Notes: generated by a model not told the origin, from the letters alone. DNA of 64,000 bases from Minisyncoccia bacterium (GCA_049997855.1 JBEKSG010000004.1:2607-66606), one strand, 5' to 3'. Positions 8,479 to 31,632 are shown, counted from the first letter of the stretch. Program-made: numbers and translations.

Positions 8479-8494
8479 GGGGTATACTAGATAC

Positions 8495-9061: not shown

Positions 9062-9067
9062 TTTAGC

Positions 9068-11822: not shown

Positions 11823-11827
11823 ATAGC

Positions 11828-12334: not shown

Positions 12335-12339
12335 GCTAA

Positions 12340-14370
<2,031 letters not shown>

Positions 14371-14397
14371 GGCTAATTTTTGTTATAGTATCCTTGT

Positions 14398-16138: not shown

Positions 16139-16262
16139 CTTCAAAATCTCTTTTTAAAAATCCTTAACCCCACTTTTTATAGTCACTTCGCTCCTTAAAA
16201 AGCGGCACGCCCCCGCCTAGATTTTAAAAAAGAGATTTTGAAATATGCCTTATAATAGATAA

Positions 16263-16847
16263 ATGGACTACGTTCATTTTATAAATCTCGAGTATTTTAT
16301 TTTGCTGGCGTATCGGGTGTTTACCGGCACCAACATTGATATCTCGCAAATCCCCGCGCAGACGCTCCAGCTTACCGAGTATATCGCGTGGGCGGGCATT
16401 ATTTTTACGGTATTATTTGCCGTGCTTTTTATATACACGCAACGGCGCATACATGTCATCGAGCACGAGGGTTGGCACAGACGTGCCTCAGAAGAGGAGC
16501 ATCTTAAGGCACAACATACGGAGGAGATGCCTATTAATCCGCAATGGGAGCATATCATTATGCTCATCAGCACGCCGCAAGAAAGCGACTGGCGTCGCGC
16601 CGTTATGGAAGCCGACATCATGATGGGTAATATGCTCACCGCGCGCGGCTACCGGGGCGAGACCGTTGCCGACCAGTTGCGCGATGCAAACCCGATACAG
16701 TTTACAACGCTTGATTTGGCGTGGAAGGCACATAAAGTACGCAACGAGATAGCGCACAAGGGCGAGAGCTTTAGGCTCGACGAGCGCACCGCAAAAGCAA
16801 CGATAGACCTCTATCGCAGAGTCTTTGAAGAGTTTCAGTATTTGTGA
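16263..16847 (+). CDS. Membrane-anchored HEPN/DUF4145-like protein
   Basis: One TM helix; C-terminal R-x4-H motif (VRNEIAH) typical of HEPN-type domains. Confidence 0.35.
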   Translation: MDYVHFINLEYFILLAYRVFTGTNIDISQIPAQTLQLTEYIAWAGIIFTVLFAVLFIYTQRRIHVIEHEGWHRRASEEEHLKAQHTEEMPINPQWEHIIMLISTPQESDWRRAVMEADIMMGNMLTARGYRGETVADQLRDANPIQFTTLDLAWKAHKVRNEIAHKGESFRLDERTAKATIDLYRRVFEEFQYL

Positions 16848-16882
16848 TATCCTGGGGCCATTAGAGGCTAGGCTCTTATCAT

Positions 16883-16953
16883 CGCGGGGTGGAGGAATGG
16901 TACCTCACGAGGCTCATAACCTCGGGATCTGGGTTCGACTCCCGGCCCCGCAA
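16883..16953 (+). tRNA. tRNA-fMet (anticodon CAT), initiator type
   Basis: Cloverleaf folded by hand: acceptor CGCGGGG/CCCCGCA with C1xA72 mismatch, A11:U24 pair, anticodon loop CTCATAA, T-loop TTCGACT. Confidence 0.75.
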
Positions 16954-16960
16954 CACGTAT

Positions 16961-17572
16961 ATGTCGCATCATTTTTCCATAGGAGAGTCGCTCCATTTTG
17001 GCTGGGAAAAGACCAAAGCACACAGTCGGCTCCTGTTTCAAACGATGCTAACGTTTTTTGCGGTGGAGGTTGCGAGCGCGATAGTGCAGCATGTTCTTAC
17101 ACATAGTGTGCTCGGGTTTGTCGCACAAGTGGCGCTGTTTGTTGTAAGCATTTATATCGGCGTCGGGTTTACGGTGATAGTGCTCAAGATCGCGCGCGGT
17201 GAACATGCATCGTACAGCGCGCTTCTGCCCAACACGGCGCTTGTGTGGCGTTTCTTTTTGGCGGGTCTGCTCTCCGGCGTCCTCATATGCATCGGTCTCA
17301 TACTTTTGATTGTGCCGGGAGTCTATCTATTACTTCGCTACTCTATGGTGCGCTTTGCCGTTATCGACGGCGCAAGCGTTACCGACAGTTTGCGCAAAAG
17401 TGCCGAGCTTACAGTGGGGGTCAAATGGCATTTGCTTTGGTTTATTCTTGCAATTATTGCAATCAACATCGTCGGTGCAATACTCTTTTTGGTGCCGCTT
17501 CTCGTGACCGTGCCGGTGACTATGATAGCCTACGCGCATGTGTACCAAAAGTTGCTCAGCCGCAAAGGCTAA
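16961..17572 (+). CDS. Integral membrane protein (DUF975-like); listed ORF start 16889 overlaps the tRNA and is rejected
   Basis: 4-5 predicted TM helices; ATG 16961 right after tRNA. Confidence 0.35.
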   Translation: MSHHFSIGESLHFGWEKTKAHSRLLFQTMLTFFAVEVASAIVQHVLTHSVLGFVAQVALFVVSIYIGVGFTVIVLKIARGEHASYSALLPNTALVWRFFLAGLLSGVLICIGLILLIVPGVYLLLRYSMVRFAVIDGASVTDSLRKSAELTVGVKWHLLWFILAIIAINIVGAILFLVPLLVTVPVTMIAYAHVYQKLLSRKG

Positions 17573-17653
17573 GAGTAAAAATTGAAGAAATAGCGCAAAA
17601 ATGATACCGTGAGCGCTAGGCGTGCCCTTCGAAACTCGAAGAGTACGGGTCAT

Positions 17654-17727
17654 GTCGGCGTAGCTCAGGCAGTTAGAGCATGGGACTCATAAACCCAAGG
17701 TCGAAGGTGCAAGTCCTTCCGCCGACA
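17654..17727 (+). tRNA. tRNA-Met (anticodon CAT; elongator or Ile2-type)
   Basis: Acceptor GTCGGCG/CGCCGAC, D-arm GCTCAG..GAGC, anticodon loop CTCATAA, perfect T-stem GAAGG/CCTTC. Confidence 0.7.
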
Positions 17728-17821
17728 CACAGTTGTGACGCCAGGAACTCGTTCCGTCAGGCGTCGAAAGTGCGAAATTCCGGTACCATACCGCTGAGGG
17801 TCGAATCCTAGTCTGCCAGCC

Positions 17822-18505
17822 ATGAAAATTATAAACAACCTCAGCATAACCGGTGCATATCGAAACAGAGTGACGCTCGTTGTCTATTATGGTATGCGTG
17901 TGTTAGTCCTCATTGGGGCGGCTCTATTTCTATTGCGGGGAAACTGGGAGTCGGCGGTAAGCACTCTCCTTATTTTCCTTCTGATGTTTGTTCCGTCTAT
18001 CCTTAAAGAGCGCTACCGGCTGTATCTGCCGTTTACTCTCGACCTAGGCATTGTTATTTTTATTTTTTCCACGCTCTTTTTAGGCGAAGTGGGGCGCTTT
18101 TACGATCGGATTCCGCTGTGGGATAAATTTTTACACTTTCAATCGGGACTTTTACTGGGCGCAACCGGCTACGTACTGCTGTATATCTTAAACGAACATA
18201 AGCACTTGAAACTCAACCTGAGCCCGCTGTTTGTATCAATTTTTGCGGTCGCATTTTCTCTCGCAATAGGCGCGGTGTGGGAGATGTTCGAGTTTGCGGG
18301 AGACGCATATTTTTCAGCTCATCTCGTCAATTACTCTCCTTGGCAGGCAAGCAATGCCGATACCATGTGGGACCTTATTGCAGACGGAGGAGGAGCATTG
18401 ATCGTCAGTATGGTGGGATATTTTTGGATGCATCAATATAAGCGCCTCCCTTTTACTCCTTGGATGCTCAAGATAATCAAGATCAAAAATAAGTTCAAGA
18501 AATAG
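17822..18505 (+). CDS. Integral membrane protein (hypothetical)
   Basis: Multiple hydrophobic helices; no catalytic motif recognised. Confidence 0.35.
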   Translation: MKIINNLSITGAYRNRVTLVVYYGMRVLVLIGAALFLLRGNWESAVSTLLIFLLMFVPSILKERYRLYLPFTLDLGIVIFIFSTLFLGEVGRFYDRIPLWDKFLHFQSGLLLGATGYVLLYILNEHKHLKLNLSPLFVSIFAVAFSLAIGAVWEMFEFAGDAYFSAHLVNYSPWQASNADTMWDLIADGGGALIVSMVGYFWMHQYKRLPFTPWMLKIIKIKNKFKK

Positions 18506-18606
18506 CAGTGGAAATGTCATATACATGGTTGGTCTGGCGGCCTTTCTCCGCCACAGCAAAAGTTTAAAAGCCTCTGGAAGTTATCGAGGACTTTTTCTTT
18601 TGCTTC

Positions 18607-19938
18607 CTACATTAGAGTAATTTTCTTATCATTGATTACGAGCTTGCCGCGCAGGTGCTCCAGTAGCTCGCGCTTTTCCTCCATGCTTCCTTCCTCAAGC
18701 AGGTACTTTGCATATTTCTTTATATCCATCGCCACCCCTGTGTCTTTCTCTTTTGAACCAAGCACTGTCTTGCGGAGCTTGTTGTAGCGGGCAATCTCTT
18801 TCTCAATAAGGTGGCGGGCGCCCAACTCGTCAATCTCGACTTGGTCGATGATTCCGCACAGCTGCTCTATGACACTGTCCTCACGGATGTAAGGATTCTT
18901 GCAATTGCGGTCTTTGCCGCCAGTGCAACTGTAGTAGGTGTACCAGCGGGAAGTGCCATCTTTGTTGACCTTCTGCTTGTCCAATCCGGTCACGCCGGAG
19001 CCGCACTTGCCGCATACCATGAGGCGCACAAAGGTAAACTCGCGGTCGCGCTTTCTTGGCTTGCTCTCCTCGATAATCTTTGCACGGACCGCTTGGAATA
19101 GTTCCTGTGAGATGAGAGGCTGATGCTTCCCAACATACCAGTTGCCGCTCTTACGCGGGTACTCATACACGCCGCAGTAAAAGGGATTCTTGAGCATCTC
19201 GTACAGCGTGCTTATGTTAAGCGTCTTGTCGTTGCGTGTCTTGAAGTTCATCTCATCCTTTAGCCAAAAATATACCCGCTTGCCGCTCCAGCGTTCCTTT
19301 GCCACTTTCTCGAATATCATCCTAACTACCGGCGCCCGTAGGGGATCGAGCAGTACTTCGCACTTGTGGTCTGAGCGTTTGTCGTTGAGATATCCAGTCG
19401 GCGCATACCCCGGCAAAAGGCCCATTTCTGCACGCGTTCGCAGCCCGCGCTTCACGTTTACGCTCTTGTTGTCATTCTCCAGCTTTGCCTGAGAGCACAG
19501 TATCATCAGCATGAACTTCTCGTTCGGATTGTTGGTAAACTTCTGCGAGTACGCGCGTATCTCCAAGAGCTTGCCTTGGTCGAATAGGTCCACCACCGCA
19601 CCAAGGTCTCCGGCATTGCGGCTCAGCCTGTCCGGTGCCCACGTCAGGATGCCGTTGAATTTTCCCGTTCGTATATCAGCGAGCAACTGCTGGTACACGG
19701 GTCGTTGCCCGGCCGCTTTTGCAGAATGCTTCTCCTGTCGCACTTCAACAACTTCGAGCCCATCCCGCTCTGCCACCTGCGTCATCTCCTTGATTTGCGA
19801 CCCTATGGAGAGAGCCTGATTCTCATCGTCCTCGGTGCTCTTGCGAGCGTAAAGGCAGTAGCGCACCTTTACTGCCTCCTTAATTTCCGGCCTCGCCCCT
19901 AGAGCTCCTGTTGTACCTTCAAAAACGCTTGTGTTCAT
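18607..19938 (-). CDS. Large serine recombinase (integrase)
   Basis: N-terminal resolvase catalytic domain (YARKSTEDDENQ..), recombinase domain, C-terminal zinc ribbon CGKCG..C..C, coiled-coil; 443 aa. Confidence 0.85.
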   Translation of the reverse strand: MNTSVFEGTTGALGARPEIKEAVKVRYCLYARKSTEDDENQALSIGSQIKEMTQVAERDGLEVVEVRQEKHSAKAAGQRPVYQQLLADIRTGKFNGILTWAPDRLSRNAGDLGAVVDLFDQGKLLEIRAYSQKFTNNPNEKFMLMILCSQAKLENDNKSVNVKRGLRTRAEMGLLPGYAPTGYLNDKRSDHKCEVLLDPLRAPVVRMIFEKVAKERWSGKRVYFWLKDEMNFKTRNDKTLNISTLYEMLKNPFYCGVYEYPRKSGNWYVGKHQPLISQELFQAVRAKIIEESKPRKRDREFTFVRLMVCGKCGSGVTGLDKQKVNKDGTSRWYTYYSCTGGKDRNCKNPYIREDSVIEQLCGIIDQVEIDELGARHLIEKEIARYNKLRKTVLGSKEKDTGVAMDIKKYAKYLLEEGSMEEKRELLEHLRGKLVINDKKITLM

Positions 19939-19947
19939 ATGCCTTGT

Positions 19948-19975
19948 AGTTACTTGCTAATCTGCAAGTACAAGG
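19948..19975. promoter_or_regulatory. Inverted repeat TTACTTGC-n6-GCAAGTAC in divergent promoter region between recombinase and helicase genes
   Basis: Dyad read from sequence, 10 nt upstream of recombinase start codon. Confidence 0.3.
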
Positions 19976-20034
19976 AATGACGCAACCCCTGCTGTGAGTC
20001 TAGACCAGCTCCGGCACCCCTAAGTTGGTAAGAA

Positions 20035-23000
20035 ATGCTTCTAAAAGAGGCTCAAAGTGCTATTATTTGCCTAATAATACGAAATTTCATGAATTCCGAT
20101 CTTACATTCATAACCAACGAGGATGGTCAGAACCTTAAGGAGAGGTTCGAAGTGTTAATTAAAGACACTAAGTTCTTTGACTGTCTGGTCGGGTACTTTT
20201 ATGCCAGCGGCTTCCACGCCGTATATAAGTCTCTAGAAAAGACGGAGAAAATCAGGATTCTTATTGGCATCAGCACTGATCCGCATACCTACGATTTGAT
20301 GCAGCAAGCGCAACCGGTAGCGCAGACTGCCTTGCAGTTCTCGAGTGCAGAGACGAAAGAAAAGCTTGGTGCAGTTGTCGAGCAGGAGATGGAATCTTCC
20401 GAGGACAACGCAATAACCGAGAATGGCGTTTCAAAATTCATTGAGTGGATACAGAGCGGTAAATTGGAGATTCGTGCATATCCATCGGAGAAAATCCATG
20501 CAAAGGTTTACATCATGACGTTTGGCGAGGGCGATCGCGACAAGGGTCGCGTTATCACCGGTTCAAGCAACTTTACGCAAGCGGGTTTCGTGGACAATCT
20601 AGAGTTCAATGTCGAACTCAAAAACAGTGCCGATTATGATTTTGCTTTGAGCAAATTCAACGAACTATGGAAAGATTCAGTGGATGTCAGTCAAAAATAT
20701 GTTGACACCATACAAACGAAAACGTGGCTCAGCGATAGCATTACCCCGTATGAACTGTATCTGAAATTCCTCTATGAATATTTCAAGGATGATCTAGGTA
20801 CCCACGATGAAGTGTTCCTTAAGTATCTTCCGATTGAATTCAAGAAACTTGAGTACCAAGAACAAGCCGTTCTTAATGCGAAGAAGATTCTTGATGAATA
20901 TGGCGGTGTATTTATTTCCGACGTCGTCGGTCTAGGTAAGACGTATATTTCGGCGATGCTCGGCGGCCAACTCGTGAATGAAGGCAGGATTCTCGTCATC
21001 GCTCCGCCGGTCCTGCTGGATAAGACCAATCCGGGGTCATGGCCGAACGTGTTTAGGGATTTCAACGTGCCGGCCACGTTCCGGTCTATTGGCGAACTCG
21101 ACAAGATCATCAAGGACGGTGTCGAACAGTATTCGCATCTGTTTGTTGATGAGGCACACCGCTTCCGTACCGAGAATAATGCGACGTATGAAAAGTTGGC
21201 CGAGATTTGTCGTGGGAAGAAGGTCGTCCTTGTAACCGCGACTCCGTACAACAACTCCCCAAGGGATATTTTGAGTCAGATCAAGCTTTTCCAGAAGGCT
21301 CGAAAGAGTACAGTCCCTAATTTGCCGGATCTCGAGCAATTCTTCGCCGGTCTCGAACGCAAGCTTAAAAATCTCGACCGCCAGAAAGATTATGACGAAT
21401 ACATCGCGGCCGTCAAAGAAAACGCGAAGGAAATCCGAGAGAAAGTACTCAAGTATTTGATGGTGCGTCGTACTCGCACGGAGATCACCAAATATTTTGC
21501 GGAAGATCTGGCCGCTCAGAAGCTGAAGTTCCCGGACATAGAAAAACCGGAAGCGACTTTCTATGAATTGAACGACGATGAGGATGTGATATTTACCAAG
21601 ACCATTGAGCTGCTGGCTAAGAACTTCAAGTACGCGCGGTACACCCCGATTCTTTACTACAAGGGTGAGGTCAGTCAGCCGGAGGAATTGGCCCAAAAGA
21701 ACATGGGCAAGTTTATGAAAATACTGCTCATCAAGCGTCTCGAAAGCAGCTTTCACGCATTCCAAAACTCACTCGGTCGCTTTATACATTCTTACGAGTC
21801 ATTTATATCGGAGATGGATAACGGCAACGTATATGTAAGCAAAAAGTACACGAATAAAATCTTTGAATTTCTTGCGGATGACAATGACGACGCTGTCGAA
21901 GCACTGATTAGCCAGGGTAAGGCTGATAGGTTACCCAGCAAGGATTTCCGAGCAGAGTTTAGAAAGGACTTGCAAAGCGATCTCGATATCTTGAAAGAGA
22001 TTCATCAGATGTGGATGAGCATCAAGCGCGACCCGAAGCTTTTGGCATTTATAGAAAAACTTTCCACCAACCCGATCCTTAAAAAGAGTAAGCTCATCAT
22101 ATTTACTGAATCAAAGGAGACGGCTGAATACCTCGCCAAGAATATCGATGCCAAGTTTCCGAATGAGACGCTCTGCTTTACTGGTGCCTCCAGCATGCTG
22201 GTCCGGGAACAGGTTATTGAGAATTTTGATGCCAAGGCCAGATTCCCGAAAGACGATTACCGAATTCTCGTCTGCACTGAAATATTGGCGGAAGGTGTGA
22301 ACTTACATCGTTCCAATGTCGTTATTAATTACGATATTCCTTGGAATCCGACCCGCATGATGCAACGGGTCGGTCGCGTCAACCGAGTCGATACCAAATT
22401 CGATAAGGTCTATACATTCAATTTCTTTCCTACTAAACAAGCCAACGACCAAATCAAGCTTCGTGAGGCGGCCGAGGCGAAAATCAGCGCATTCTTGTCC
22501 TTGCTTGGCGGCGATGCACATTTGCTCACCGAAAACGAGCCAATTGGATCCCACGAGCTGTTCAACCGCCTCACCTCAAAAGAAATTATTACCGGCGAGA
22601 ATGAGGACGAGGAGAGCGAACTCAAATATCTTCGTGTCATCAAGGATATTCGAGATAAAGACCCGGATACTTTTGAAAAAGTTAAGCGTTTACCCAAGAA
22701 GGCGCGAACAGCGAGAACGAACAAAGAGCATGTCGGGCAACTGATCTCATATTTTCGTCGTGGAAAGATACAAAAGTTCTTCGCAGCCACAGGCACTCGT
22801 TCTCAAGAATTGGATTTCATTTCCGCAGCTAAAATGCTTGAGTCTGCAAAAGACACGAAGCGGCAGAAAGTTGATAAGGATTTCTACTCCCTGCTTGAGG
22901 AAAACAAGAAGGCATTTATCTTTGCGACAACAGAAGAAATGCCGGAAGTAAAAATGCGCGGCGGGCGCGACAGCGCGACGCAAATCTTGAGGATTCTGAA

Positions 23001-23283
23001 GGCGACCATGAACGACCACCGACAATTTACCGAAGAACAGGAGCTTTATCTCAAAAAGGTCGTCACCCAGCTCGAGGAAGGCGGTTTGCCTAAACAAACC
23101 ACGAAGGTAACACTGCAGGCTCTTAATGATGAAATCAAAAAAAACATTAATCCGCTAAAGATTCTCTCGGTCCTGCAGAGTCACATCTCAGTGCGGCTTC
23201 TTGGAGGTCATTTTGCCGAAACTACCACCGACCACTTCGGTAAGCGAGAGGTTATTCTGTCAGAGTATTTGACGAACTTATGA
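20035..23283 (+). CDS. PLD-family nuclease / SNF2-type SF2 helicase fusion protein (probable start ATG 20089)
   Basis: N-terminal HxK..GSxN phospholipase-D motif (HAKVYIM..GSSNFT); Walker A GLGKT, DEAH box (FVDEAH), helicase C-terminal motif VI (QRVGRVNR). Confidence 0.8.
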   Translation: MLLKEAQSAIICLIIRNFMNSDLTFITNEDGQNLKERFEVLIKDTKFFDCLVGYFYASGFHAVYKSLEKTEKIRILIGISTDPHTYDLMQQAQPVAQTALQFSSAETKEKLGAVVEQEMESSEDNAITENGVSKFIEWIQSGKLEIRAYPSEKIHAKVYIMTFGEGDRDKGRVITGSSNFTQAGFVDNLEFNVELKNSADYDFALSKFNELWKDSVDVSQKYVDTIQTKTWLSDSITPYELYLKFLYEYFKDDLGTHDEVFLKYLPIEFKKLEYQEQAVLNAKKILDEYGGVFISDVVGLGKTYISAMLGGQLVNEGRILVIAPPVLLDKTNPGSWPNVFRDFNVPATFRSIGELDKIIKDGVEQYSHLFVDEAHRFRTENNATYEKLAEICRGKKVVLVTATPYNNSPRDILSQIKLFQKARKSTVPNLPDLEQFFAGLERKLKNLDRQKDYDEYIAAVKENAKEIREKVLKYLMVRRTRTEITKYFAEDLAAQKLKFPDIEKPEATFYELNDDEDVIFTKTIELLAKNFKYARYTPILYYKGEVSQPEELAQKNMGKFMKILLIKRLESSFHAFQNSLGRFIHSYESFISEMDNGNVYVSKKYTNKIFEFLADDNDDAVEALISQGKADRLPSKDFRAEFRKDLQSDLDILKEIHQMWMSIKRDPKLLAFIEKLSTNPILKKSKLIIFTESKETAEYLAKNIDAKFPNETLCFTGASSMLVREQVIENFDAKARFPKDDYRILVCTEILAEGVNLHRSNVVINYDIPWNPTRMMQRVGRVNRVDTKFDKVYTFNFFPTKQANDQIKLREAAEAKISAFLSLLGGDAHLLTENEPIGSHELFNRLTSKEIITGENEDEESELKYLRVIKDIRDKDPDTFEKVKRLPKKARTARTNKEHVGQLISYFRRGKIQKFFAATGTRSQELDFISAAKMLESAKDTKRQKVDKDFYSLLEENKKAFIFATTEEMPEVKMRGGRDSATQILRILKATMNDHRQFTEEQELYLKKVVTQLEEGGLPKQTTKVTLQALNDEIKKNINPLKILSVLQSHISVRLLGGHFAETTTDHFGKREVILSEYLTNL

Positions 23284-23284
23284 T

Positions 23285-26200
23285 ATGCAGAAAACACAGG
23301 CACAAAATCTTGTCAGAGACACTCTACAGAATGATTTCAATAAAGAGAAGTTTCTTTATTTTGTAAAAAACCTTCTCAATAGGGTCGATGATTCGAAGGC
23401 TTTTCTGGCACGCGGCTATGTGCCCGAGGCCTATACAAGCTACATTAAGACTTATGAGCGGCTTGCAACTTATACTGACCCTATCGGTAGTAAAGTAGAT
23501 ATCCTTATTGTCTATCTCCAAAAAGAAACGTCGCTTGAACGGGCTCGTACTGCCCAGCGTAATTTTGTTGCTCGGTATCTCAAGGAAAGGAACCAAAAGG
23601 ATGCCGGCCTTGTAGCCTTTGTCTCTCCAAACCTAGCCGATTGGCGCTTCTCGCTGGTGAAGATGGAATATAAGTTCACTGAGGACAAATCTGGCAAGAC
23701 AAAGGTTAAGGAAGAGTTTACTCCGGCAAAACGCTGGTCGTTTCTTGTCGGTAAGAATGAAAATAGTCATACCGCCCAGAGCCGCCTCGCTCCAATCATG
23801 GAAGACGATGAAGCTAACCCCACTCTTAAACAGCTCGAGGATGCTTTCAATATAGAAAAAGTCACCAAAGAATTCTTTGAAAAATATCGAGAAATATTCT
23901 TGCGTGTTCATGAGACTTTGAATGATGTCATCAGTCATCACCCAAATATTAAAGCTGATTTTGCTGAGAAAAATGTTAATACCGTAGATTTTTCAAAAAA
24001 ATTACTCGGCCAGATTGTGTTCCTCTACTTCTTGCAGAAAAAAGGTTGGTTCGGTGTGCCGATGAATAAAGGCTGGGGCGATGGCAACAAGAAATTCCTC
24101 CGGACTTTATTTGAAGAGGCGGCTGGTAAAGACAAAAACTATTTTAATGACTACCTTGAACCACTTTTCTATGAAGCTTTAGCTAAAGAACGAGACGATG
24201 ATTTTTATAGCCGATTTGAATGTAAAATACCGTTCCTAAACGGCGGCCTCTTTGACCCAATCAACAACTACGATTGGGTAAATACTGCCATTGATTTACC
24301 TAACGATATTTTTTCAAATACTCGAAAAACCAAAGACGGCGACATTGGCGACGGCATTCTGGATATATTTGATCGCTATAACTTTACTGTTAAAGAAGAT
24401 GAGCCGCTGGAAAAAGAGGTGGCTGTAGACCCGGAAATGCTCGGTAAAGTGTTTGAGAACCTCTTGGAAGTCAAAGACCGTAAATCCAAAGGCACTTACT
24501 ATACGCCACGCGAGATCGTTCATTATATGTGCGAGCAGAGTTTGGTTAACTATCTATCTACTGAACTCGACGGCAAGGTCGCAAAAGAAGATTTAGAGAT
24601 GCTTGTGAAGATTGGCGAAAATGTAGCAGAGCATGAAGCCATATACGTGGCTAAAAAGAAGGACAACCCGGATTATGAGGGGCCGTACGATCAAATATTG
24701 CCAGAATCCATAGAGAAATTCGCCAAAGACATTGACCAAAAACTGGCCGATATCAAAGTTTGCGATCCGGCCATCGGCTCCGGCGCTTTTCCGGTTGGTA
24801 TGATGAATGTCATTGTTAAGGTCCGTATGGTGCTTTCGAGCTACCTCAAAAACAAAAACCGGAGCCTATACAATTTCAAACGCGATTGCATTCAGAATTC
24901 TCTTTATGGTGTGGATATTGATCCGGGTGCGGTTGAGATTGCTAAGTTACGGCTGTGGCTTTCTTTGATAGTTGACGAAGATGATATCAAGCAGATCAAG
25001 CCATTGCCGAACTTGGATTATAAAATAATGCAAGGAAATAGTCTGCTTGAGGAATTTGAAGGTATCAAGCTCTTTGATGAAAAACTTCTTGAAGCACAAA
25101 TTATTGACTCAAGAATTTTTGATCCCTTTAATCAAAAGATATCATCTCTACAAAGTGAACTCTTAAAACATTATATAAAAAACTCCGAGTGGCTGAAAAA
25201 TAAAGATGCGGATAGGCCACAGGAAGTGCGAGATCTTGAGGGGCAGTTGCGGGAACTTCTGAAAACAAAAAAACTCTTTAAAGATAAGGGCTTTGAGCAA
25301 AAAGACTTATTTGCCAATGCAATAGAATCCAGACAAATCCACGATGAGCTGGAAAGATTGCACAAGAAGTTTTTTGAGGAAACTAATAAAAACCAAAAAG
25401 ATACATTAAAGCAGCAAATCGAAAAGTTGGAATGGGAACTTATTGAAGCAACGCTCAAAGAGCAGGGCAAGATCTCTGCCCTCAAAAAGCTCCAGGAATT
25501 TAAACGTTCAAACACCAAACCATTTTTCCTATGGAAGCTCAATTTTGCCGAAGTGTTCGAGGAGAAAGGCGGCTTCGATGTGGTGATTGCAAATCCACCG
25601 TACGTTGGGGAAAGTGGAAACAAGGAAATATTCAGGCCAATTGCAAAAGGAAATTTAGAAAGATTTTATAAGGGGAAAATGGATCTTTTTTACTTCTTTT
25701 TTCATCTTGCTCTCAATCTTGGTAAACCATCCTCGCTGTGTGCATTTATTTCTACAAATTATTTTATAACCGCATCTGGCGCTAGCAATCTCAGGTCTGA
25801 CTTAAGAGAAAGGGCTGTAATTAATAATCTCGTAAATTTTAATGAACTAAGAATATTTGAATCGGCACTTGGGCAACACAATATGATTACCATCTTCAGT
25901 AAAGATCTAAATAAGGAAACTTCCGCTCATACTTGTATTACACGAAGATCTGGGTTAGCGAACGGAGAAATATTAAATAAAGTATTTTCCGGTGAAGACA
26001 AGGATTCAGATTACTACTCTGTGAAGCAGGAGCAACTTTATGATGGTATAGAAAATTACATACGTCTTAGTGGTATCGGAAATACAGAAAACCCAATAGA
26101 AAAAGTGTTAGAAAAGATGAAAGAACAAGGAACTATTCTAAAGGATGTTTGTGAAATCAATCAAGGGTTGGTAACCGGAGCAAATAAGGTCAGTTTGAAA

Positions 26201-26965
26201 CACATAAAAAAATATAAAATTGAGGCAGGGGTTGGAGATGGGATTTTTGTGTTAAGCAAAGAAGAAATAAAAAACCTTAATTTAACTAAAGATGAGAAAC
26301 GGATTTTAAGGCCGTGGTTTAAAAATAGCGATGTTTATAGATGGAGCACAAATATTGATAGTAGTGAGAGCGTTATGTATCTAGGTAGAAGTGAAAAAAG
26401 CATTGGATCTAACATGGAAGGACATTTGCAAAGATATATTGAACTATTGAATCACCGACGAGAGGTCGAAAATGAAGTTATTAAATGGTGGCAACTTCAA
26501 TGGCCAAGAGAAGAAACTATTTTCGATGAAGCCAAAATAGTGGCACCTTATAGGAGCAAGACTAATACATTTGGTTATAACGAGGTTCCTTGGTATGCAG
26601 CCTCTGACGTATACTTTTTGACGCAGAAAGATAAACAGATTTCATTGAAATATATTTTAGGATTACTAAATTCAAAATTATATCGCCTATGGCTTTACCA
26701 ACGAGGGAAAAGAAAAGGAGAAATATTAGAATTATTTTACCAACCACTCTCTGAAATTCCAGTTAAGAAATGTTTACAAGATGACCAAAAACCATTTATT
26801 GATCTCGCTGAAAAAATTCTCAAAATCACTAAATCGGATGACTACCTAAAGAATGCCGAAAAACGAGCAATAGTCCAAGACCTTGAACATCAAATAGATA
26901 AACTAGTATATAAACTTTACGGCCTCACTGAAAACGAGATTAAGATTGTGGAAAAAGAATTATGA
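23285..26965 (+). CDS. Large gamma-class N6-adenine DNA methyltransferase, PglX/Eco57I/DrmMI-like (1226 aa)
   Basis: Motif X GTYYTP, motif I DPAIGSGAFP, motif IV NPPY (VIANPPYVG), long C-terminal specificity region; 2-nt gap from helicase gene. Confidence 0.85.
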   Translation: MQKTQAQNLVRDTLQNDFNKEKFLYFVKNLLNRVDDSKAFLARGYVPEAYTSYIKTYERLATYTDPIGSKVDILIVYLQKETSLERARTAQRNFVARYLKERNQKDAGLVAFVSPNLADWRFSLVKMEYKFTEDKSGKTKVKEEFTPAKRWSFLVGKNENSHTAQSRLAPIMEDDEANPTLKQLEDAFNIEKVTKEFFEKYREIFLRVHETLNDVISHHPNIKADFAEKNVNTVDFSKKLLGQIVFLYFLQKKGWFGVPMNKGWGDGNKKFLRTLFEEAAGKDKNYFNDYLEPLFYEALAKERDDDFYSRFECKIPFLNGGLFDPINNYDWVNTAIDLPNDIFSNTRKTKDGDIGDGILDIFDRYNFTVKEDEPLEKEVAVDPEMLGKVFENLLEVKDRKSKGTYYTPREIVHYMCEQSLVNYLSTELDGKVAKEDLEMLVKIGENVAEHEAIYVAKKKDNPDYEGPYDQILPESIEKFAKDIDQKLADIKVCDPAIGSGAFPVGMMNVIVKVRMVLSSYLKNKNRSLYNFKRDCIQNSLYGVDIDPGAVEIAKLRLWLSLIVDEDDIKQIKPLPNLDYKIMQGNSLLEEFEGIKLFDEKLLEAQIIDSRIFDPFNQKISSLQSELLKHYIKNSEWLKNKDADRPQEVRDLEGQLRELLKTKKLFKDKGFEQKDLFANAIESRQIHDELERLHKKFFEETNKNQKDTLKQQIEKLEWELIEATLKEQGKISALKKLQEFKRSNTKPFFLWKLNFAEVFEEKGGFDVVIANPPYVGESGNKEIFRPIAKGNLERFYKGKMDLFYFFFHLALNLGKPSSLCAFISTNYFITASGASNLRSDLRERAVINNLVNFNELRIFESALGQHNMITIFSKDLNKETSAHTCITRRSGLANGEILNKVFSGEDKDSDYYSVKQEQLYDGIENYIRLSGIGNTENPIEKVLEKMKEQGTILKDVCEINQGLVTGANKVSLKHIKKYKIEAGVGDGIFVLSKEEIKNLNLTKDEKRILRPWFKNSDVYRWSTNIDSSESVMYLGRSEKSIGSNMEGHLQRYIELLNHRREVENEVIKWWQLQWPREETIFDEAKIVAPYRSKTNTFGYNEVPWYAASDVYFLTQKDKQISLKYILGLLNSKLYRLWLYQRGKRKGEILELFYQPLSEIPVKKCLQDDQKPFIDLAEKILKITKSDDYLKNAEKRAIVQDLEHQIDKLVYKLYGLTENEIKIVEKEL

Positions 26966-27312
26966 AAACCGTATTTATAGGGCATCCGGTCGGCGGCGAT
27001 ATAAAGGGCAATATCGAGAAAGTTTTAAAGATATGCTCGGAGGTGCACACGAAGGATATTATTCCGGTTGCCCCCTATCTTATATCGCTTCAATATCTTA
27101 ACGACGAATTGATCGAAGACCGGGAACTTGGCATGGAGGCCAACCATGAATGTTTTCGCCGCCGATATGTTGATGAGCTTTGGTTGTTTGGCGATACAAT
27201 ATCCCCGGGAATGGAGAAAGAAATTTTACTCGCGAAGGAAATGGGCATCCCAATCGTCCCAAAGACCGAGGGTGCAAAGCGAGATTTGAGCAAGCTCACT
27301 GGTGTAGAATAA
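26962..27312 (+). CDS. DUF4406-like (nucleoside 2-deoxyribosyltransferase-like fold) protein
   Basis: MKTVFIGHPVGGD.. N-terminus typical of DUF4406; ATGA overlap with MTase gene. Confidence 0.4.
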   Translation: MKTVFIGHPVGGDIKGNIEKVLKICSEVHTKDIIPVAPYLISLQYLNDELIEDRELGMEANHECFRRRYVDELWLFGDTISPGMEKEILLAKEMGIPIVPKTEGAKRDLSKLTGVE

Positions 27313-27316
27313 ATTT

Positions 27317-27448
27317 ATGGACGAGGAACTTTTTGAACTGGCAAAAGAGAACGACCTAACGCTTGATGAGGCGCAGGAGGTTCAGGATCTTGCTGATGAG
27401 ACAGGGTTAGATCTAGAAGAAGCCTTAGAGCTCTGGCAGGAGCAGTAG
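27317..27448 (+). CDS. 43-aa highly acidic small protein, copy 1 (MDEELFELAKENDLTLDEAQEVQDLADETGLDLEEALELWQEQ)
   Basis: Not in ORF track (<60 aa); a second copy at 61931 differs mainly at synonymous sites, implying a selected protein. Confidence 0.5.
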   Translation: MDEELFELAKENDLTLDEAQEVQDLADETGLDLEEALELWQEQ

Positions 27449-27495
27449 TCTGCGGTAATAAAGACAATTTCCTCGAAAAGTGTTATAATATACCT

Positions 27496-28281
27496 ATGAA
27501 GTCATTCCGAGTTTTAGCACAGCCACTTTTCGGCGAGGAGGAAAGAAGGGAATATTTCGTGGATGCCGAGGATGAGGAAGACGCAAAAAAGCTCGGTTTC
27601 GAGAAAATGTTTGCGCGTGAAAGCAAGGATGCGCTGCTCGATAGCCCTAGCCAAATGTTCACCGCCGAAGAAATAACCTTCAGGCCTCGTAGGCTTTCCG
27701 ATCTAATCGACAACATCGAATACTACGTTACGAAAATGCGAAAGACGGAGGATATGGATGTCATTCCCGAAATGCTCAGGCAGTACGCTCTAAATTATTT
27801 TAGGGACGTGCCGTTGGACGATGATGCCCTGCAGGCGGTCGCAATCTTCACGATGGATAAGACCTACCGCGTAGCGGCATACCTGGAAATATTTGATAAC
27901 TACACCAGAGCGTATTTTGCAAAAGTGATTCCCCACATTTGGGATTACCTACACCGCAGAGGACTTCCCGTTTTTTATATTGTCGACAATACGTTCCGAA
28001 ACGACGGAAGGTTTGAAGCTATTACTGAGATGTTCAAGCTCACAGGTATAACCGTAGTATCTCCTTATGACGGAGAAGGTACCCTAGAATACGAAGCTGT
28101 GGGTCGACAGATCAAGGAGGCTGTGGCGGCAAAAATGATTGTCATGTATATCGAGAAGGATGCCCGAGTTAATTACCTCGACCGAGTCAAAGAATTGGCG
28201 ACGAAGTCAAACTACCTCTGCATCTTCAGAAGCAAAGCGTCCGCGAACCACTTGATCGAGATATTAAAGAACCATTCTTAG
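27496..28281 (+). CDS. Hypothetical protein (261 aa)
   Basis: Intact ORF in AT-rich island; no motif recognised. Confidence 0.35.
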   Translation: MKSFRVLAQPLFGEEERREYFVDAEDEEDAKKLGFEKMFARESKDALLDSPSQMFTAEEITFRPRRLSDLIDNIEYYVTKMRKTEDMDVIPEMLRQYALNYFRDVPLDDDALQAVAIFTMDKTYRVAAYLEIFDNYTRAYFAKVIPHIWDYLHRRGLPVFYIVDNTFRNDGRFEAITEMFKLTGITVVSPYDGEGTLEYEAVGRQIKEAVAAKMIVMYIEKDARVNYLDRVKELATKSNYLCIFRSKASANHLIEILKNHS

Positions 28282-28350
28282 ACCTCAATTGGTTAATGTT
28301 GATAGCCCCTTCACAACGTGCTAAATCTAAACTAACATCCTCATACTATT

Positions 28351-29640
28351 ATGACTACAATTACATGCACTAAGTGTGGCGCGGAAATTGAGCTCTCGGA
28401 AGCCCTAACAAAAGACATCGAGAAAACAGTTCTCATTGCCGAGCACAAAAAGCACGAGGCTGAACTGGAGACAGTCAGAAAAGAGGCAGCCGCTAGTGCT
28501 CAAAAGAGTGCTGAATCGACGCTGGAAATTGAAAGAAAAAAGCTTGCACATGAGGCTGATGCTGCAAAAAAAGCTGCGGATGCAGAAATTGAAATTGCAA
28601 AAAAGAAGTTTGAGGCTGAGACGCTTGCGGTAAAAAAGAAAGCATCAGCCGAGAATGATCTCATAATAAAGGAATTGAAAGCTGAAGCAGAAGGTGATAA
28701 AAAATCAAATGGAGAACTCCGTGAGAAACTGAGCGAGTTGATGACGGAGTTGAGAGAAGAGCGCAAAGCTAAGGAAAACGCTGAGTTGGAAATGCAGGAG
28801 AGAATGGCGAAAGAAGAAACAAAAATTCGCGAAGAGGCTACAAAAAATGCTGATGAAAAGTATCGTTTTAAATTGGCGGAAAGTGACAAGAAATTATCAG
28901 ATACACAGAAGGCGTTAGACGAAGCTCAAAGAAAAGCGGCCCAAGGGTCTCAACAACTTCAAGGGGAAGTATTAGAGCTTGATATGGAACAGGCCCTAAG
29001 GGACGAATTTCGTGATGATATTATCGATCCTATTGGCAAGGGAGTAAAAGGAAGTGACATCCGGCAAACTGTTCGAAGTCCAAGAGAGTCAGAATGTGGA
29101 ATCATTTTGTGGGAATGCAAAAGTCACAAGAACTGGAAAGAGGAATGGATACAGACTGCCAAAGAGAATTTGCGGTCCGCTAAAGCAAACATTCCTGTCA
29201 TTGTAAGCAATATAATGCCTAAACAAATTTCTGGAGACATTGGAAATACCAATGGTGTTTGGGTTTGCAAGCCAAGTTCCATGGTGATTCTCGCAACATT
29301 GCTCCGTAAGGGATTACTAGACGTCGGTCTTCAAAAAGCCCTCGCTCAAAATCGCGGTACGAAAGCGGATGCGCTTTTTGGTTTCGTGACTAGTCACGAA
29401 TTTGTGCATCAAGTGGAGGCGATGATAGAAACCTATACTGAAATGAGAGCACAGGTGTTGAAAGAGCGCACTGCATACGAGAAATTTTGGGCTCAAAGAG
29501 AAGCACAGGCACAGAGACTTCTCATGGGAACTGCAAACATTATTGGGGGAATGGCGGGGCACATTGGTGCGACGGCAATGCCAAAAATCAAAGGGTTGGA
29601 ACTACTCGAGGGTGGCAATACAGAACCAGAGGCTGAATAA
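28351..29640 (+). CDS. Zinc-ribbon + long coiled-coil protein (DUF2130-like)
   Basis: N-terminal CTKCG zinc-ribbon-like motif, ~200-aa Lys/Glu-rich coiled coil, conserved C-terminal globular region. Confidence 0.35.
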   Translation: MTTITCTKCGAEIELSEALTKDIEKTVLIAEHKKHEAELETVRKEAAASAQKSAESTLEIERKKLAHEADAAKKAADAEIEIAKKKFEAETLAVKKKASAENDLIIKELKAEAEGDKKSNGELREKLSELMTELREERKAKENAELEMQERMAKEETKIREEATKNADEKYRFKLAESDKKLSDTQKALDEAQRKAAQGSQQLQGEVLELDMEQALRDEFRDDIIDPIGKGVKGSDIRQTVRSPRESECGIILWECKSHKNWKEEWIQTAKENLRSAKANIPVIVSNIMPKQISGDIGNTNGVWVCKPSSMVILATLLRKGLLDVGLQKALAQNRGTKADALFGFVTSHEFVHQVEAMIETYTEMRAQVLKERTAYEKFWAQREAQAQRLLMGTANIIGGMAGHIGATAMPKIKGLELLEGGNTEPEAE

Positions 29641-29672
29641 CTCCCGAGCCGCGTCAAGTTAAAAAAAACTCT

Positions 29673-30287
29673 ATGCCACTCAAATTAAGAAAATATAAAA
29701 ATGCTTGCATAAAACTAAACGGGGGTAATCCCGTTTTTATACCTGAGTCAGATCCAAAAAATGGGACGGGCAAGATAAACATAATGTTTATTAATGAAAG
29801 GCCCGGTCCTAAAACTAGAGGAACGGATCTTGTGTGTTTTGATAATCCTGATCCGACAGCAAGACTGTTTAAACATCTTTTTGAAAAAACTTTTGGTCTA
29901 GAATATCGTAGCCATATCTTTATAACAAACGCAGTAATTTGGGTTCCCGACGAAGCAAAACCAAGAAATTACAAACCCACAAACAAGGAATTGCGAGACA
30001 GTCTGCCAATTTTAAAGAATCAAATAGAAACAATTAAACCAAAGCTGATCGTTTCGTTGGGTAATAGTGCTTTATACTCACTGAAGAGATTGTATTCAGA
30101 ATCTCAAAAACTCAAAGGATATAAACTTACTAATGATATAGGGAAAGTAATAACAGACACACCAATTAGTATTTATCCGGCGTTCCATACTTCGTCTTTA
30201 GGACAGGTCACAAGAAATAAGAAACAGCAGGAAAAAGATTGGCTAAAAATGAGAGGCTTAATCACTACCACCCCATCTAACCCCTAA
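29673..30287 (+). CDS. Uracil-DNA glycosylase superfamily-like protein
   Basis: ERPGP..G motif A-like and AFHTSS motif B-like spacing resembling family 4/5 UDGs; weak. Confidence 0.3.
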   Translation: MPLKLRKYKNACIKLNGGNPVFIPESDPKNGTGKINIMFINERPGPKTRGTDLVCFDNPDPTARLFKHLFEKTFGLEYRSHIFITNAVIWVPDEAKPRNYKPTNKELRDSLPILKNQIETIKPKLIVSLGNSALYSLKRLYSESQKLKGYKLTNDIGKVITDTPISIYPAFHTSSLGQVTRNKKQQEKDWLKMRGLITTTPSNP

Positions 30288-30290
30288 CAT

Positions 30291-30482
30291 ATGAAAAAGG
30301 ACAAGGAGATTAAGATCGTGTATCACTATATCGAGCCCAAAACCGAGGAAGAATCACAGGAGGCAGAGCGGCGCTTGGATGCTGCTTTTGACATCCTTTT
30401 TGAAGCCGTTGAGAGGAAAAACAATAAAAAATTAATCGTTCAGGACACGTCGTCTGGTGAATCTGAAAGACCCACTCTATGA
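30291..30482 (+). CDS. Small hypothetical protein (63 aa)
   Basis: ORF only. Confidence 0.2.
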   Translation: MKKDKEIKIVYHYIEPKTEEESQEAERRLDAAFDILFEAVERKNNKKLIVQDTSSGESERPTL

Positions 30483-30664
30483 TAGAACTACTGACCATAA
30501 AGGAGGTTGCGGAGTTGCTGAAGGTTTCTCAAACTTCAGTGCGACGCCTGCAGCAAGGGCGACATCTCCCATTCATCAAGGTTGGGGGTAGTGTCCGTTT
30601 TGATAAAAGCGACATTATTAATTTCCTAAAGGAACAGAGGGTTGAGGCAATCAGTAGATTTTGA
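30479..30664 (+). CDS. Excisionase-family / MerR-like HTH DNA-binding protein (possible recombination directionality factor)
   Basis: LTIKEVAELLKVSQTSVRRL helix-turn-helix typical of excisionase-family proteins; last gene before att-like inverted repeat. Confidence 0.55.
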   Translation: MIELLTIKEVAELLKVSQTSVRRLQQGRHLPFIKVGGSVRFDKSDIINFLKEQRVEAISRF

Positions 30665-30734
30665 GACTTGCCGGTCGTTGGGCTATTTATTAATTAAATA
30701 GCCAAAGAGCAGTACAGGAGCGGTCGGCAAGTCT
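30665..30734. mobile_element. Candidate att site: nested imperfect inverted repeat (outer arms AGACTTGCCGGTCG / CGGTCGGCAAGTCT 12/14; inner palindrome GGCTATTTATTAATTAAATAGCC)
   Basis: Read from sequence; ~50-bp imperfect dyads are typical of serine-integrase att sites; directly follows excisionase-like gene. Confidence 0.35.
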
Positions 30735-30761
30735 TAGAACCTTCTGAGAATGAGGCTCCCA

Positions 30762-30812
30762 AAAAGTGACACGGTTAAATGCCATTCCTGTGTCACTTTT
30801 GTAACTTTTTGG
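30762..30812 (+). terminator. Hairpin AAAAGTGACAC..GTGTCACTTTT followed by T-run
   Basis: Read from sequence. Confidence 0.35.
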
Positions 30813-30942
30813 TGCGCTCAAGTCGCGTCGATCGGGTAATGTAGAATATAGCTAAACCGCCTTGCAGGACTCGGCCGACCACGGTTCTAGCTCAAGTCGG
30901 CCAGCCAATGGATTTGATGGTGCAGTAGAGTAGAATGAATGT

Positions 30943-31251
30943 ATGGCTTGGTATCTGTATATAGCTAGCTTTTTTGCCGGAATTTTTTTAGCCAATGCAA
31001 TCCCGCATTTCATGCAGGGTGTTTCGGGGAATAGATTTCCCTCACCGTTTGCCAAACCACCCGGCAGGGGACTGTCATCTCCGATGGTCAACGTGGTGTG
31101 GGCACTGTTCAATTTCGTAGTCGGTTATCTGCTGTTACAGGTGGGGCAGGTACGCTCCGGCAACATGATGTCACTCGTCATTTTCTTTGTCGGTGCCGCT
31201 GCCATCAGCATCATGTCGAGCATCAACTTTCAAAAGAAAGAAAGAGAATGA
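30943..31251 (+). CDS. Small integral membrane protein (hypothetical)
   Basis: Three hydrophobic helices. Confidence 0.3.
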   Translation: MAWYLYIASFFAGIFLANAIPHFMQGVSGNRFPSPFAKPPGRGLSSPMVNVVWALFNFVVGYLLLQVGQVRSGNMMSLVIFFVGAAAISIMSSINFQKKERE

Positions 31252-31275
31252 TTGAGATAGCGGCTTCTTAAGTCT

Positions 31276-31632
31276 ATGACTGACCAACCACAAGCAACCG
31301 ACTATTTGGGGAAATCTGTTTTAGTTAAAATAGACCGACCTCTTCATTCAAAACATCCGAAGCATGGTTTTATATATGAGTTGAATTACGGATTTATTCC
31401 CGACACATGTTCCCCCGACGGTGAGGAACTCGACGCGTATGTGCTCAGTGTTACAGAGCCACTGGAAACTTTTACGGGCAAATGCATCGCAGTTATTCAT
31501 CGAACGAACGATGACGATGACAAATTGGTTGTCATTCCGGAAGATATAAAAAATATGACCGATGAGGATATCCGCGCCGCAACGAATTTTCAAGAACAGT
31601 TTTTTAAATCTGAAATAATACGACGCGCATAA
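31276..31632 (+). CDS. Inorganic pyrophosphatase-like protein (short)
   Basis: NYGFIPDT..DGEELDAYVL closely resembles family I PPase active-site segment (YGFIPQT..DGDPLDVLV). Confidence 0.45.
   Translation: MTDQPQATDYLGKSVLVKIDRPLHSKHPKHGFIYELNYGFIPDTCSPDGEELDAYVLSVTEPLETFTGKCIAVIHRTNDDDDKLVVIPEDIKNMTDEDIRAATNFQEQFFKSEIIRRA

Follow-up and report, generated by a model that had tools for sequence, protein, structure and literature searches.

We report here on a pair of adjacent genes, HEL and MT, found in a 64,000-nucleotide stretch of DNA from a Minisyncoccia bacterium (GCA_049997855.1 JBEKSG010000004.1:2607-66606), which was analysed at its full length and is referred to below as the window. 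HEL encodes a fusion of a phospholipase D (PLD) nuclease domain of the HKD type with a Swi2/Snf2 ATPase, and MT encodes a gamma-class N6-adenine DNA methyltransferase (MTase) provided with its own target-recognition domain (TRD). All together, the data make it probable that HEL and MT form a self-contained, horizontally mobile, two-subunit ATP-dependent restriction–modification (RM) system, in which HEL would be the nuclease. This reading is carried by the invariance of the HEL catalytic motifs, the reciprocal linkage of the two genes, the hypervariability of the MT recognition domain and the lack of any other conserved partner gene.

Both open reading frames (ORFs), which an initial annotation of the window had placed on the plus strand at the coordinates listed in Table 1, were found there, and all the HEL and MT motifs that it had named were located in the translated ORFs. 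The spacing of two nucleotides that it had proposed did not hold, since the HEL stop codon (TGA, 23281-23283) and the MT start codon (ATG, 23285) are 1 nt apart.

Domain organisation of HEL and MT

When the HEL protein was scanned against Pfam, four families scored above their gathering thresholds: PLDc_2 (residues 60-212, 38.1 bits), SNF2-rel_dom and ResIII (residues 339-519, 35.4 and 35.3 bits, respectively) and Helicase_C (residues 682-785, 76.2 bits). A match of the PLD domain to RE_NgoFVII was weaker and fell under its Pfam cut-off. Specifically, the HEL motifs are HAKVYIM (residues 155-161), GSSNFT (176-181), GLGKT (299-303), DEAH (372-375) and QRVGRVNR (777-784). The length of 1082 aa first assigned to HEL is correct for the ORF; the homologues align from residue ~19 only, and therefore the ATG at 20089, giving a protein of 1064 aa, is the probable true start.

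An alignment of 32 HEL homologues showed a mean column identity of 75%. Residues H155, K157, G176, S177, S178 and N179 are invariant in this set, as are the ATPase motifs, and the invariance of these catalytic motifs is therefore an observation far beyond chance. Many invariant columns are also present in the C-terminal region (residues ~831-1082), as far as residue 1076. The Pfam scan gave no match in this region, which is a candidate docking or DNA-binding module.

In order to class the ATPase core, and solely for this purpose, Foldseek matches of an AlphaFold2 model of HEL were used, the model itself being weak (see below). The best matches were RapA (E ~1e-12, ~1000 columns), CSB, Chd1, INO80, Rad54 and ZorD. 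Because the core matches Swi2/Snf2 proteins best, the model points to HEL translocating on double-stranded DNA, as Snf2 enzymes do, instead of separating the strands as a helicase would. Sequence and profile searches of the PDB with HEL returned generic helicase C-lobe matches only. Among the PADLOC models, the best HEL match was a partial one to 'C3a139 HKD+Snf2', a type III CRISPR accessory family (Shah et al. 2018).

On the MT protein, the motifs GTYYTP, DPAIGSGAFP and NPPY map to residues 403-408, 494-503 and 770-773, respectively. Motif I lies ahead of motif IV and the TRD is C-terminal, which we read as the gamma-class order. Pfam matches were obtained with Eco57I (115 bits), TaqI_C (46 bits, residues 1063-1160), N6_Mtase and MmeI_Mtase, and the nearest PDB sequence match, to CamA (8cxz/7lni), covers residues 763-1186. 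Across 38 MT sequences no variation was seen in the YTP and motif I residues, and the N-P-P-Y residues are at least 90% conserved.

Upstream of the catalytic domain, an AlphaFold2 model of MT residues 1-500 (predicted local distance difference test score, pLDDT, 81) showed an alpha/beta domain at residues 1-175 and a helical domain at residues 180-400. The N-terminal alpha/beta domain matches 803 database clusters at 50% identity; in all but one of the best 150 clusters listed it begins within the first ~20 residues, and these are mostly proteins of 1000-1300 aa.

Conservation and variability of the gene pair

A genome scan, in which each species was represented by one genome, returned 338 stretches with HEL relatives, and the best 80 of the 338 were studied as loci. 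HEL is 66-91% identical in these 80 loci, which come from more than 10 phyla, including Patescibacteria, Omnitrophota, Desulfobacterota, Nitrospirota, Planctomycetota, Bacteroidota, Acidobacteriota, Spirochaetota and Chloroflexota. An MT homologue lies immediately 3' of HEL in about 75 of them. No alignable MT N-terminus was found 3' of HEL in the other five, four of which end ~1.5 kb or less from HEL; L024 holds only a TRD-like fragment at this place. HEL and MT are separate genes in all the related loci, with a gap shorter than 20 nt in 47/80 and a gap of 0.65-2.1 kb, holding inserted genes, in about 24/80. The neighbourhood comparison suggested by the initial annotation left the pair as the sole conserved genes: clustering of all the ORFs in the 80 loci gave no recurrent gene beyond HEL (80/80) and MT.

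The reverse test was carried out by tblastn of MT residues 1-400 against 72,556 plasmids, of which 17 records matched. In 16 of the 17, a PLD- or SNF2-type helicase gene is located within ~7 kb on the same strand, as established by inspecting the annotation for eight records and from co-located HEL and MT tblastn coordinates for the other eight. The 17th record, a conjugative plasmid of Sulfitobacter dubius (L092, 3325-4700), has a 153-aa ORF with 49% identity to MT residues 1-131, adjoining a 304-aa hypothetical; the fragment is apparently a decayed remnant of the HEL–MT module. The linkage is reciprocal across bacteria and archaea, which speaks against the possibility, raised in the initial annotation, of a helicase unrelated to the MTase.

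The order of the genes differs among the distant members. HEL is followed by MT on a Parabacteroides plasmid (L081), MT by HEL in Halorussus and Haloferax alexandrinus, and one gene separates MT from HEL in Allomeiothermus. The arrangement in Nostoc and Planktothrix is MT-x-x-(x)-HEL. The distant HEL proteins of Bacteroidota, Cyanobacteria, Deinococcota and Halobacteria, at 25-31% identity, all keep HxK...GSSN, GxGK[TS] and DExH, and because of this the sequences indicate that the HEL–MT linkage outlasts divergence to such levels, changes of gene order and the divide between bacteria and archaea.

Some of these loci deserve a closer description. In L083 (Nostoc, 3956-12223) and L090 (Planktothrix, 8671-18544), MT is followed by a small ORF, a ~435-aa hypothetical, sometimes a sigma-70-like protein, and HEL, which suggests a cyanobacterial variant of the system enlarged to three to five genes. 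On the Haloferax volcanii plasmid pHV4 (L085, 5369-10958), HVO_A0079, a member of the MT family, precedes a 777-aa PLD-domain gene adjoining an IS4 transposase; in comparison with the ~1100-aa full-length helicases, this gene appears truncated. Two viral contigs (L087 and L088) hold the full pair, and on an IMG/VR viral contig (L086, 7794-7985) the last 64 HEL residues only are found 5' of an intact-looking MT.

In addition, other genes are found within or beside the pair. A gene of ~450 aa with SLFN_AlbA_2 and HATPase_c_4 domains occurs in 15/80 loci, in 13 of which it lies between HEL and MT (L016-L018, L031, L038, L041, L043, L045, L071-L073, L075 and L077), and it is also present directly 5' of HEL on the Parabacteroides plasmid (5430-6974); it possibly serves the system as a recurring accessory or regulator. 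Bro-N (8 loci), RhuM-like, ORF6N-like and DUF1016/YhcG genes and an AAA_13 ATPase were also observed; SLFN_AlbA_2, Bro-N, DUF1016/YhcG and AAA_13 were assigned by Pfam scanning, and the RhuM and ORF6N labels were read from sequence. SLFN_AlbA_2, Bro-N, RhuM, ORF6N, DUF1016 and AAA_13 genes are usual hitch-hikers in RM operons.

The conservation of MT, measured as the identity of its homologues to the window protein, varies by region. The median identity is 72% (minimum 57%) in the helical domain (residues 176-400), 26% in the insert (residues 591-745) and 44% (range 7-71%) in the TRD (residues 881-1165). Because HEL is 66-91% identical and the TRD is only 7-71% identical, the pattern is that expected of a constant motor-nuclease joined to a specificity subunit that exchanges its recognition domains.

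A plasmid of Prevotella nigrescens (L089, 12419-16756) carries, after HEL and MT, two inverted 'Eco57I methylase domain' fragments, and an ATP-binding protein and an Mpi-family serine invertase are also located 3' of the pair. This arrangement looks like a TRD shufflon. Its layout agrees with the three motifs reported for Prevotella intermedia 17F, and gene pairs of this kind appear in a published list of programmed inversions (PMC9881135). In the window, a repeat search of positions 17000-33000 for att sites or a TRD shufflon gave only short repeats at chance level.

Proposed mechanism and alternative explanations

In the mechanism that we propose, MT would use its C-terminal TaqI-like TRD to recognise a short DNA sequence that is asymmetric, and would methylate one adenine of the host DNA, giving N6-methyladenine (m6A). 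Asymmetric, one-strand methylation is suggested by the single TRD, by the MmeI/ISP-like architecture and by the asymmetric motifs of relatives. Where incoming DNA carries such a site unmethylated, HEL would be recruited or activated by MT, and the contact would probably involve the N-terminal and helical domains of MT and the conserved C-terminal region of HEL. HEL is predicted to dimerise, two chains forming one PLD active site, because each chain has just one HxK...N half-site; in the single-motif PLD nucleases Nuc, BfiI, SauUSI and MtsD, dimerisation creates the sole active site. HEL would translocate on double-stranded DNA by its ATP-driven Swi2/Snf2 motor and would cleave upon stalling or upon the meeting of two complexes, the analogy being with type ISP and type III enzymes, with SauUSI and with the model for MtsD of the MANTIS system. 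The collision and hemimethylation details are offered tentatively.

A search of the literature for a named system of this composition returned related systems and passing mentions, and no functional study of the pair was found. The initial proposal that the module is possibly undescribed is to be softened, since the pairing itself had already been noted in passing (PMC9881135, PMC5608340). The second of these papers describes a 'type IIG' protein of 1117 aa from P. intermedia, Pin17FIII, which has an SNF2/RAD54 helicase upstream and an inverted fragment downstream; its expression alone in E. coli gave m6A at the asymmetric site GGYGAB (PMC5608340). We infer that Pin17FIII belongs to the MT family from its size, from the order of the genes and from the P. 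nigrescens locus, which is homologous, and not from its own sequence. One REBASE 'type IIG' relative of HVO_A0079 recognises CCRGAG (PMC5867850).

Several points weigh against HEL and MT forming an RM system of this kind. The cleavage of DNA by HEL is an expectation drawn from its domains and motifs. The AlphaFold2 model of HEL, built on a shallow alignment in which every row was at least 69% identical, is poor (pLDDT 61, below 50 in the PLD domain; predicted template modelling score, pTM, 0.36), and the first 50 Foldseek matches of this weak model do not include SauUSI. HVO_A0079 gave no detectable methylation in H. volcanii (PMC5867850), a null result that is ambiguous because its helicase partner appears to be truncated by an insertion sequence (IS) element; the state of the PLD partner may bear on the lack of any methylation or restriction assigned to HVO_A0079. 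The MtsD nuclease, described as a dimeric PLD–SF2 (superfamily 2) enzyme with one shared active site, is not yet reconstituted in vitro (bioRxiv 10.64898/2026.09.23.753747). As for MT, its best PADLOC match, over the full length, is REase_MTase_IIG PDLC03596 (E = 1e-246), a REBASE-derived model of 'type IIG' fusions of a restriction endonuclease (REase) and an MTase. Its N-terminal domain has weak similarity to the REase fold and may have a cryptic nuclease activity; the polar residues R88, R92, N93, R121, S123, R150, S152, E159 and H162 are invariant there across the 38 sequences, together with W120 and T163.

The points on MT would fit an autonomous type IIG/IIL enzyme, having in the N-terminal domain its own nuclease and in HEL an accessory or a mere neighbour. 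We consider this explanation unlikely. No PD-(D/E)xK motif is conserved in the domain across the 38 sequences: position 72 (D72) is D or E in 37/38, K80 is found in 33/38, and ExK in none. The Parabacteroides homologue has lost both E159 and H162, and a Foldseek search of the N-terminal model against the PDB found no nuclease. In addition, the domain is detectable in Bacteroidota MTs; hhalign found no homology between it and the N-termini of cyanobacterial and haloarchaeal MTs, which yet keep their PLD–Snf2 partner. Linkage in 16/17 plasmid records and in ~75/80 loci is far above what would be expected of a casual neighbour. Likewise, Ouellette et al. found no N-terminal REase similarity in HVO_A0079 and its REBASE 'type IIG' relatives (PMC5867850). 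Taking these comparisons together, we read the MT N-terminal domain as an adaptor specific to the family, perhaps a REase fold that has decayed.

Less likely again is that the module is not primarily defensive, acting instead as a selfish addiction cassette that stabilises its island, or in methylation-linked DNA remodelling or regulation. Its location on an integrase-bearing island, its very wide horizontal transfer and its host, a small-genome bacterium of the candidate phyla radiation (CPR), would agree with this; on the other hand, an invariant nuclease motif, a TRD that diversifies and hitch-hikers of the RM type are all in keeping with restriction, and addiction and defence can coexist in RM systems.

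To a further explanation we give very little credit, namely that HEL is a modification-dependent (type IV, SauUSI-like) nuclease and that MT serves epigenetic regulation or protection from another enzyme. SauUSI has the same PLD plus SF2 layout as HEL (PMC7913695), and the conserved HEL C-terminal region could read DNA. However, HEL is near-invariant and the TRD hypervariable, and a modification reader needs no co-inherited m6A methylase that switches specificity; moreover, an m6A reader beside an m6A methylase would be self-toxic. Pfam detected no SRA-like or other modified-base reader domain in HEL, and the weak HEL model did not place SauUSI among its top structural matches.

Finally, it is highly improbable that HEL and MT are a piece of a canonical DISARM, BREX or MANTIS/DUF499 locus, the other genes of which would lie elsewhere, since the partial hidden Markov model (HMM) matches to DrmD, BrxHII, DrmMI, PglX and the MANTIS-type PLD-helicase all score far under the curated cut-offs, no DrmA, DrmB, PglZ, BrxC or DUF499 match was obtained with the 19 window ORFs scanned by PADLOC (those of the island and the largest elsewhere), HEL and MT alone recur in the 80 loci, and MT is of the Eco57I type, from which the MTases of the Hma and MANTIS systems differ.

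Returning to HEL and MT as an RM system of their own, we lean, on balance, towards regarding the pair as the type specimen of a large, cross-domain class of ATP-dependent RM systems, a 'split type ISP' in which a PLD–Snf2 dimer would be directed by a stand-alone MTase having the appearance of a type IIG enzyme; accordingly, the restriction subunit would be wrongly assigned in many 'type IIG' entries of REBASE, and the pair would be a minimal model of BREX, MANTIS and DISARM coupling without AAA+ loaders. The family is a large one: at least 7989 HEL clusters (90% identity) were found at E <= 1e-10 among 8000 candidates scored, the best 120 clusters listed being 69-98% identical, in addition to ~800 MT N-domain clusters (50% identity) and at least 338 species genomes.

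If this is true, a very common pair, spanning CPR, Omnitrophota, Desulfobacterota, Nitrospirota, Planctomycetota, Bacteroidota, Cyanobacteria and haloarchaea, has been mis-filed as a single-chain type IIG enzyme and an anonymous 'helicase-related protein', so that the true nuclease went unnoticed. HEL and MT would then offer the simplest arrangement known so far of a PLD–Snf2 motor nuclease steered by a hemimethylating MTase, and a tractable two-protein model for questions shared with MANTIS, BREX and DISARM, that is, how the MTase hands over to the motor and how hemimethylated self DNA escapes. As a candidate restriction barrier, the pair could also affect the genetic tractability of Haloferax and of Bacteroidota from the gut and the mouth (Prevotella, Parabacteroides).

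Genomic context and comparison with known systems

HEL and MT lie on an island of ~12 kb (18607-30664), on which the order of genes is serine integrase, HEL, MT, DUF7768, a 261-aa ORF, DUF2130, uracil-DNA glycosylase and helix-turn-helix (HTH) ORF. Both the low GC content (0.426 across 20035-31700, with flanks at 0.52-0.53) and the neighbouring serine integrase, as initially annotated, were borne out. Promoter and terminator scans gave a signal no higher than background. A protein 100% identical to MT (P0121) comes from a metagenome-assembled genome (MAG) of Minisyncoccia (CPR). In two other CPR genomes, integrases 53-54% identical to that of the window are located upstream of HEL in divergent orientation (L003, 6744-8075, minus strand; L004, 3015-4334, minus strand), which suggests, from gene order and similarity, a recurrent integrase–HEL–MT cassette in Patescibacteria.

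A role as third component was weighed for the gene downstream of MT and dismissed, because this DUF7768 gene is present in 0/80 related loci; it is regarded as local cargo outside the system. It overlaps MT through ATGA. The DUF4406 label of the initial annotation was wrong, the Pfam family being DUF7768 and the PHROGs assignment nucleoside 2-deoxyribosyltransferase-like.

Two further regions of the window attracted attention. A second low-GC island (58354-61793, plus strand, GC 0.37-0.43) holds an NYN-domain protein and a 770-aa Schlafen-group-3/DUF2075–Peptidase_S24 protein; the PADLOC matches of this island to AbiO, Nhi and PDC-S41 are weak, and the 770-aa protein looks like a further candidate defence gene. 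At 32896-38257 (minus strand) there are tandem ORFs for N4/N6 type II-like DNA methyltransferases (35124-36113 and 35869-37149). The 615-aa and 325-aa ORFs flanking them gave no PADLOC match, and the 615-aa ORF gave no Pfam match either; the region may be a type II RM locus with an unrecognised endonuclease.

Table 1. Coordinates of the HEL–MT pair, its domains and the other features of the window.
Feature	Coordinates	Strand	Description
HEL	20035-23283	+	PLD(HKD) nuclease and Swi2/Snf2 ATPase fusion; 1082-aa ORF
HEL, PLD/HKD nuclease domain	20212-20670	+	residues ~60-212; single HxK...GSSN (H155, K157, N179)
HEL, Swi2/Snf2-type SF2 ATPase core	20842-22524	+	residues ~270-830; Walker A 299-303, DEAH 372-375, QRVGR 777-781
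HEL, conserved C-terminal region	22525-23283	+	residues ~831-1082
MT	23285-26965	+	gamma-class N6-adenine DNA methyltransferase; 1226 aa, own TRD
MT, N-terminal alpha/beta domain	23285-23809	+	residues 1-175; family-specific
MT, helical domain	23810-24484	+	residues 176-400; most conserved part of MT
MT, MTase catalytic domain	24485-25924	+	residues 401-880; split by variable insert ~591-745
MT, TRD (TaqI_C)	25925-26779	+	residues ~881-1165; hypervariable
DUF7768 gene	26962-27312	+	nucleoside 2-deoxyribosyltransferase-like; Pfam and PHROGs; 116 aa
Large serine recombinase (integrase)	18607-19938	-	Pfam Resolvase, Recombinase, Zn_ribbon_recom; phrog_95
DUF2130 gene	28351-29640		on island
Family-4 uracil-DNA glycosylase	29673-30287		on island
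Excisionase-like HTH ORF	30479-30664	+	near far end of island; PHROGs excisionase/HTH families, E ~1e-10
tRNA-Met	17654-17728		just beyond island
NYN-domain protein	58354-58965	+	second low-GC island
Schlafen-group-3/DUF2075 helicase	59481-61793	+	C-terminal Peptidase_S24; 770 aa; second low-GC island

By comparing the pair with known systems, the initial view of a compact helicase–nuclease and MTase module, restriction-like and distinct from canonical DISARM and BREX, was upheld, on the basis of scores below the cut-offs, the absence of core genes from the ORFs scanned and the recurrence of HEL and MT alone. The absence of drmA/drmB and pglZ/brxC, which it had also claimed, extends from the scanned ORFs to the 80 loci, where none of these genes recurs.

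Class 1 DISARM (DrmA, DrmB, DrmC, DrmD, DrmMI) has in common with the pair a PLD nuclease, an SNF2 helicase and a large N6A MTase. In DISARM, however, the nuclease and the helicase are on separate proteins, whereas they are fused in HEL, and neither DrmA (a helicase with DUF1998) nor DrmB (DUF1998) was matched by any of the 19 window ORFs scanned. DISARM was rejected, HEL scoring 123 bits with NCBIfam DISARM_DrmD (cut-off 610) and MT matching the PADLOC DrmMI model with E = 4e-34, against 1e-246 for the IIG model. BREX was likewise rejected: the PglZ phosphatase and the BrxC ATPase were not found among the 19 ORFs, and MT scored 99 bits with NCBIfam PglX (BREX-1; cut-off 500). The description of MT as PglX/DrmMI-like is therefore to be replaced, its closest relatives being the 'type IIG' entries of REBASE and PADLOC.

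Type IIG/IIL enzymes (MmeI, Eco57I, Cj0031, DrdV) share with MT a gamma-class N6A MTase and a C-terminal TRD on one chain. They act alone and ATP-free by means of an active N-terminal PD-ExK nuclease, whereas no such motif is conserved in MT, and its obligatory, reciprocal linkage to a PLD–Snf2 partner speaks against its acting autonomously. Type III enzymes (Mod/Res) resemble the pair in having two subunits, a specificity-bearing methylase and a dependent SF2-ATPase-nuclease; their sites are asymmetric and hemimethylated, as is predicted for the pair. They differ in that Mod is beta-class with an internal TRD and Res carries its PD-ExK nuclease at the C-terminus and uses a motor that is not of the Snf2 type, whereas MT is gamma-class with a C-terminal TRD and the nuclease of HEL is N-terminal and PLD-type.

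A PLD-family nuclease driven or controlled by an SF2 ATPase is shared with SauUSI (type IV) and with CglI and NgoAVII (ATP-dependent type II), whose dimeric PLD chemistry with a single active site is also predicted for HEL. SauUSI, unlike the pair, has its own TRD reading 5-methylcytosine (5mC) and no MTase. In CglI and NgoAVII, the PLD (R) and ATPase (H) moieties are on separate chains, with a B3 DNA-binding domain and a C5 MTase.

In the MANTIS systems, also called Gao_RL or 'Type-2 BREX-related' (MtsA-D), the effector MtsD, which among studied effectors is nearest to HEL, has an N-terminal PLD/HKD nuclease and a Swi2/Snf2-type ATPase, and an N6A MTase determines the specificity at asymmetric 6-bp sites. 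In MANTIS, a DUF499 AAA+ ATPase (MtsA) and DUF3780 (MtsB) are required for MTase loading; neither was found here, there being no match to DUF3780 in the 19 ORFs and no such gene recurring in the 80 loci. The MTase family also differs, MT being Eco57I/TaqI_C, and Pin17FIII, a probable relative of MT, methylates in E. coli by itself. HEL scored 142 bits with the MANTIS-type NF042964 'phospholipD_antiphage' (cut-off 1100), and by this measure represents a family related to, yet distinct from, the MANTIS-type PLD-helicase.

Type ISP enzymes (LlaGI, LlaBIII) have the activities of the pair, in the order that is obtained when the two genes are read one after the other: nuclease, SF2 ATPase, coupling region, gamma-class N6A MTase and one TRD. 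Their asymmetric sites, hemimethylation and cleavage following ATP-driven translocation are also what is predicted for HEL and MT. Type ISP enzymes, however, are single polypeptides, whereas HEL and MT are two ORFs parted by a stop codon and 1 nt; their nuclease is Mrr/PD-ExK, in contrast to the N-terminal PLDc_2/HKD domain of HEL. Other differences are the Swi2/Snf2-like motor of HEL (RapA, CSB) and the extra family-specific N-terminal domain of MT. In conclusion, HEL–MT is neither DISARM nor BREX; it resembles both a type ISP enzyme split in two and a MANTIS system without the loaders, and is a member of neither.

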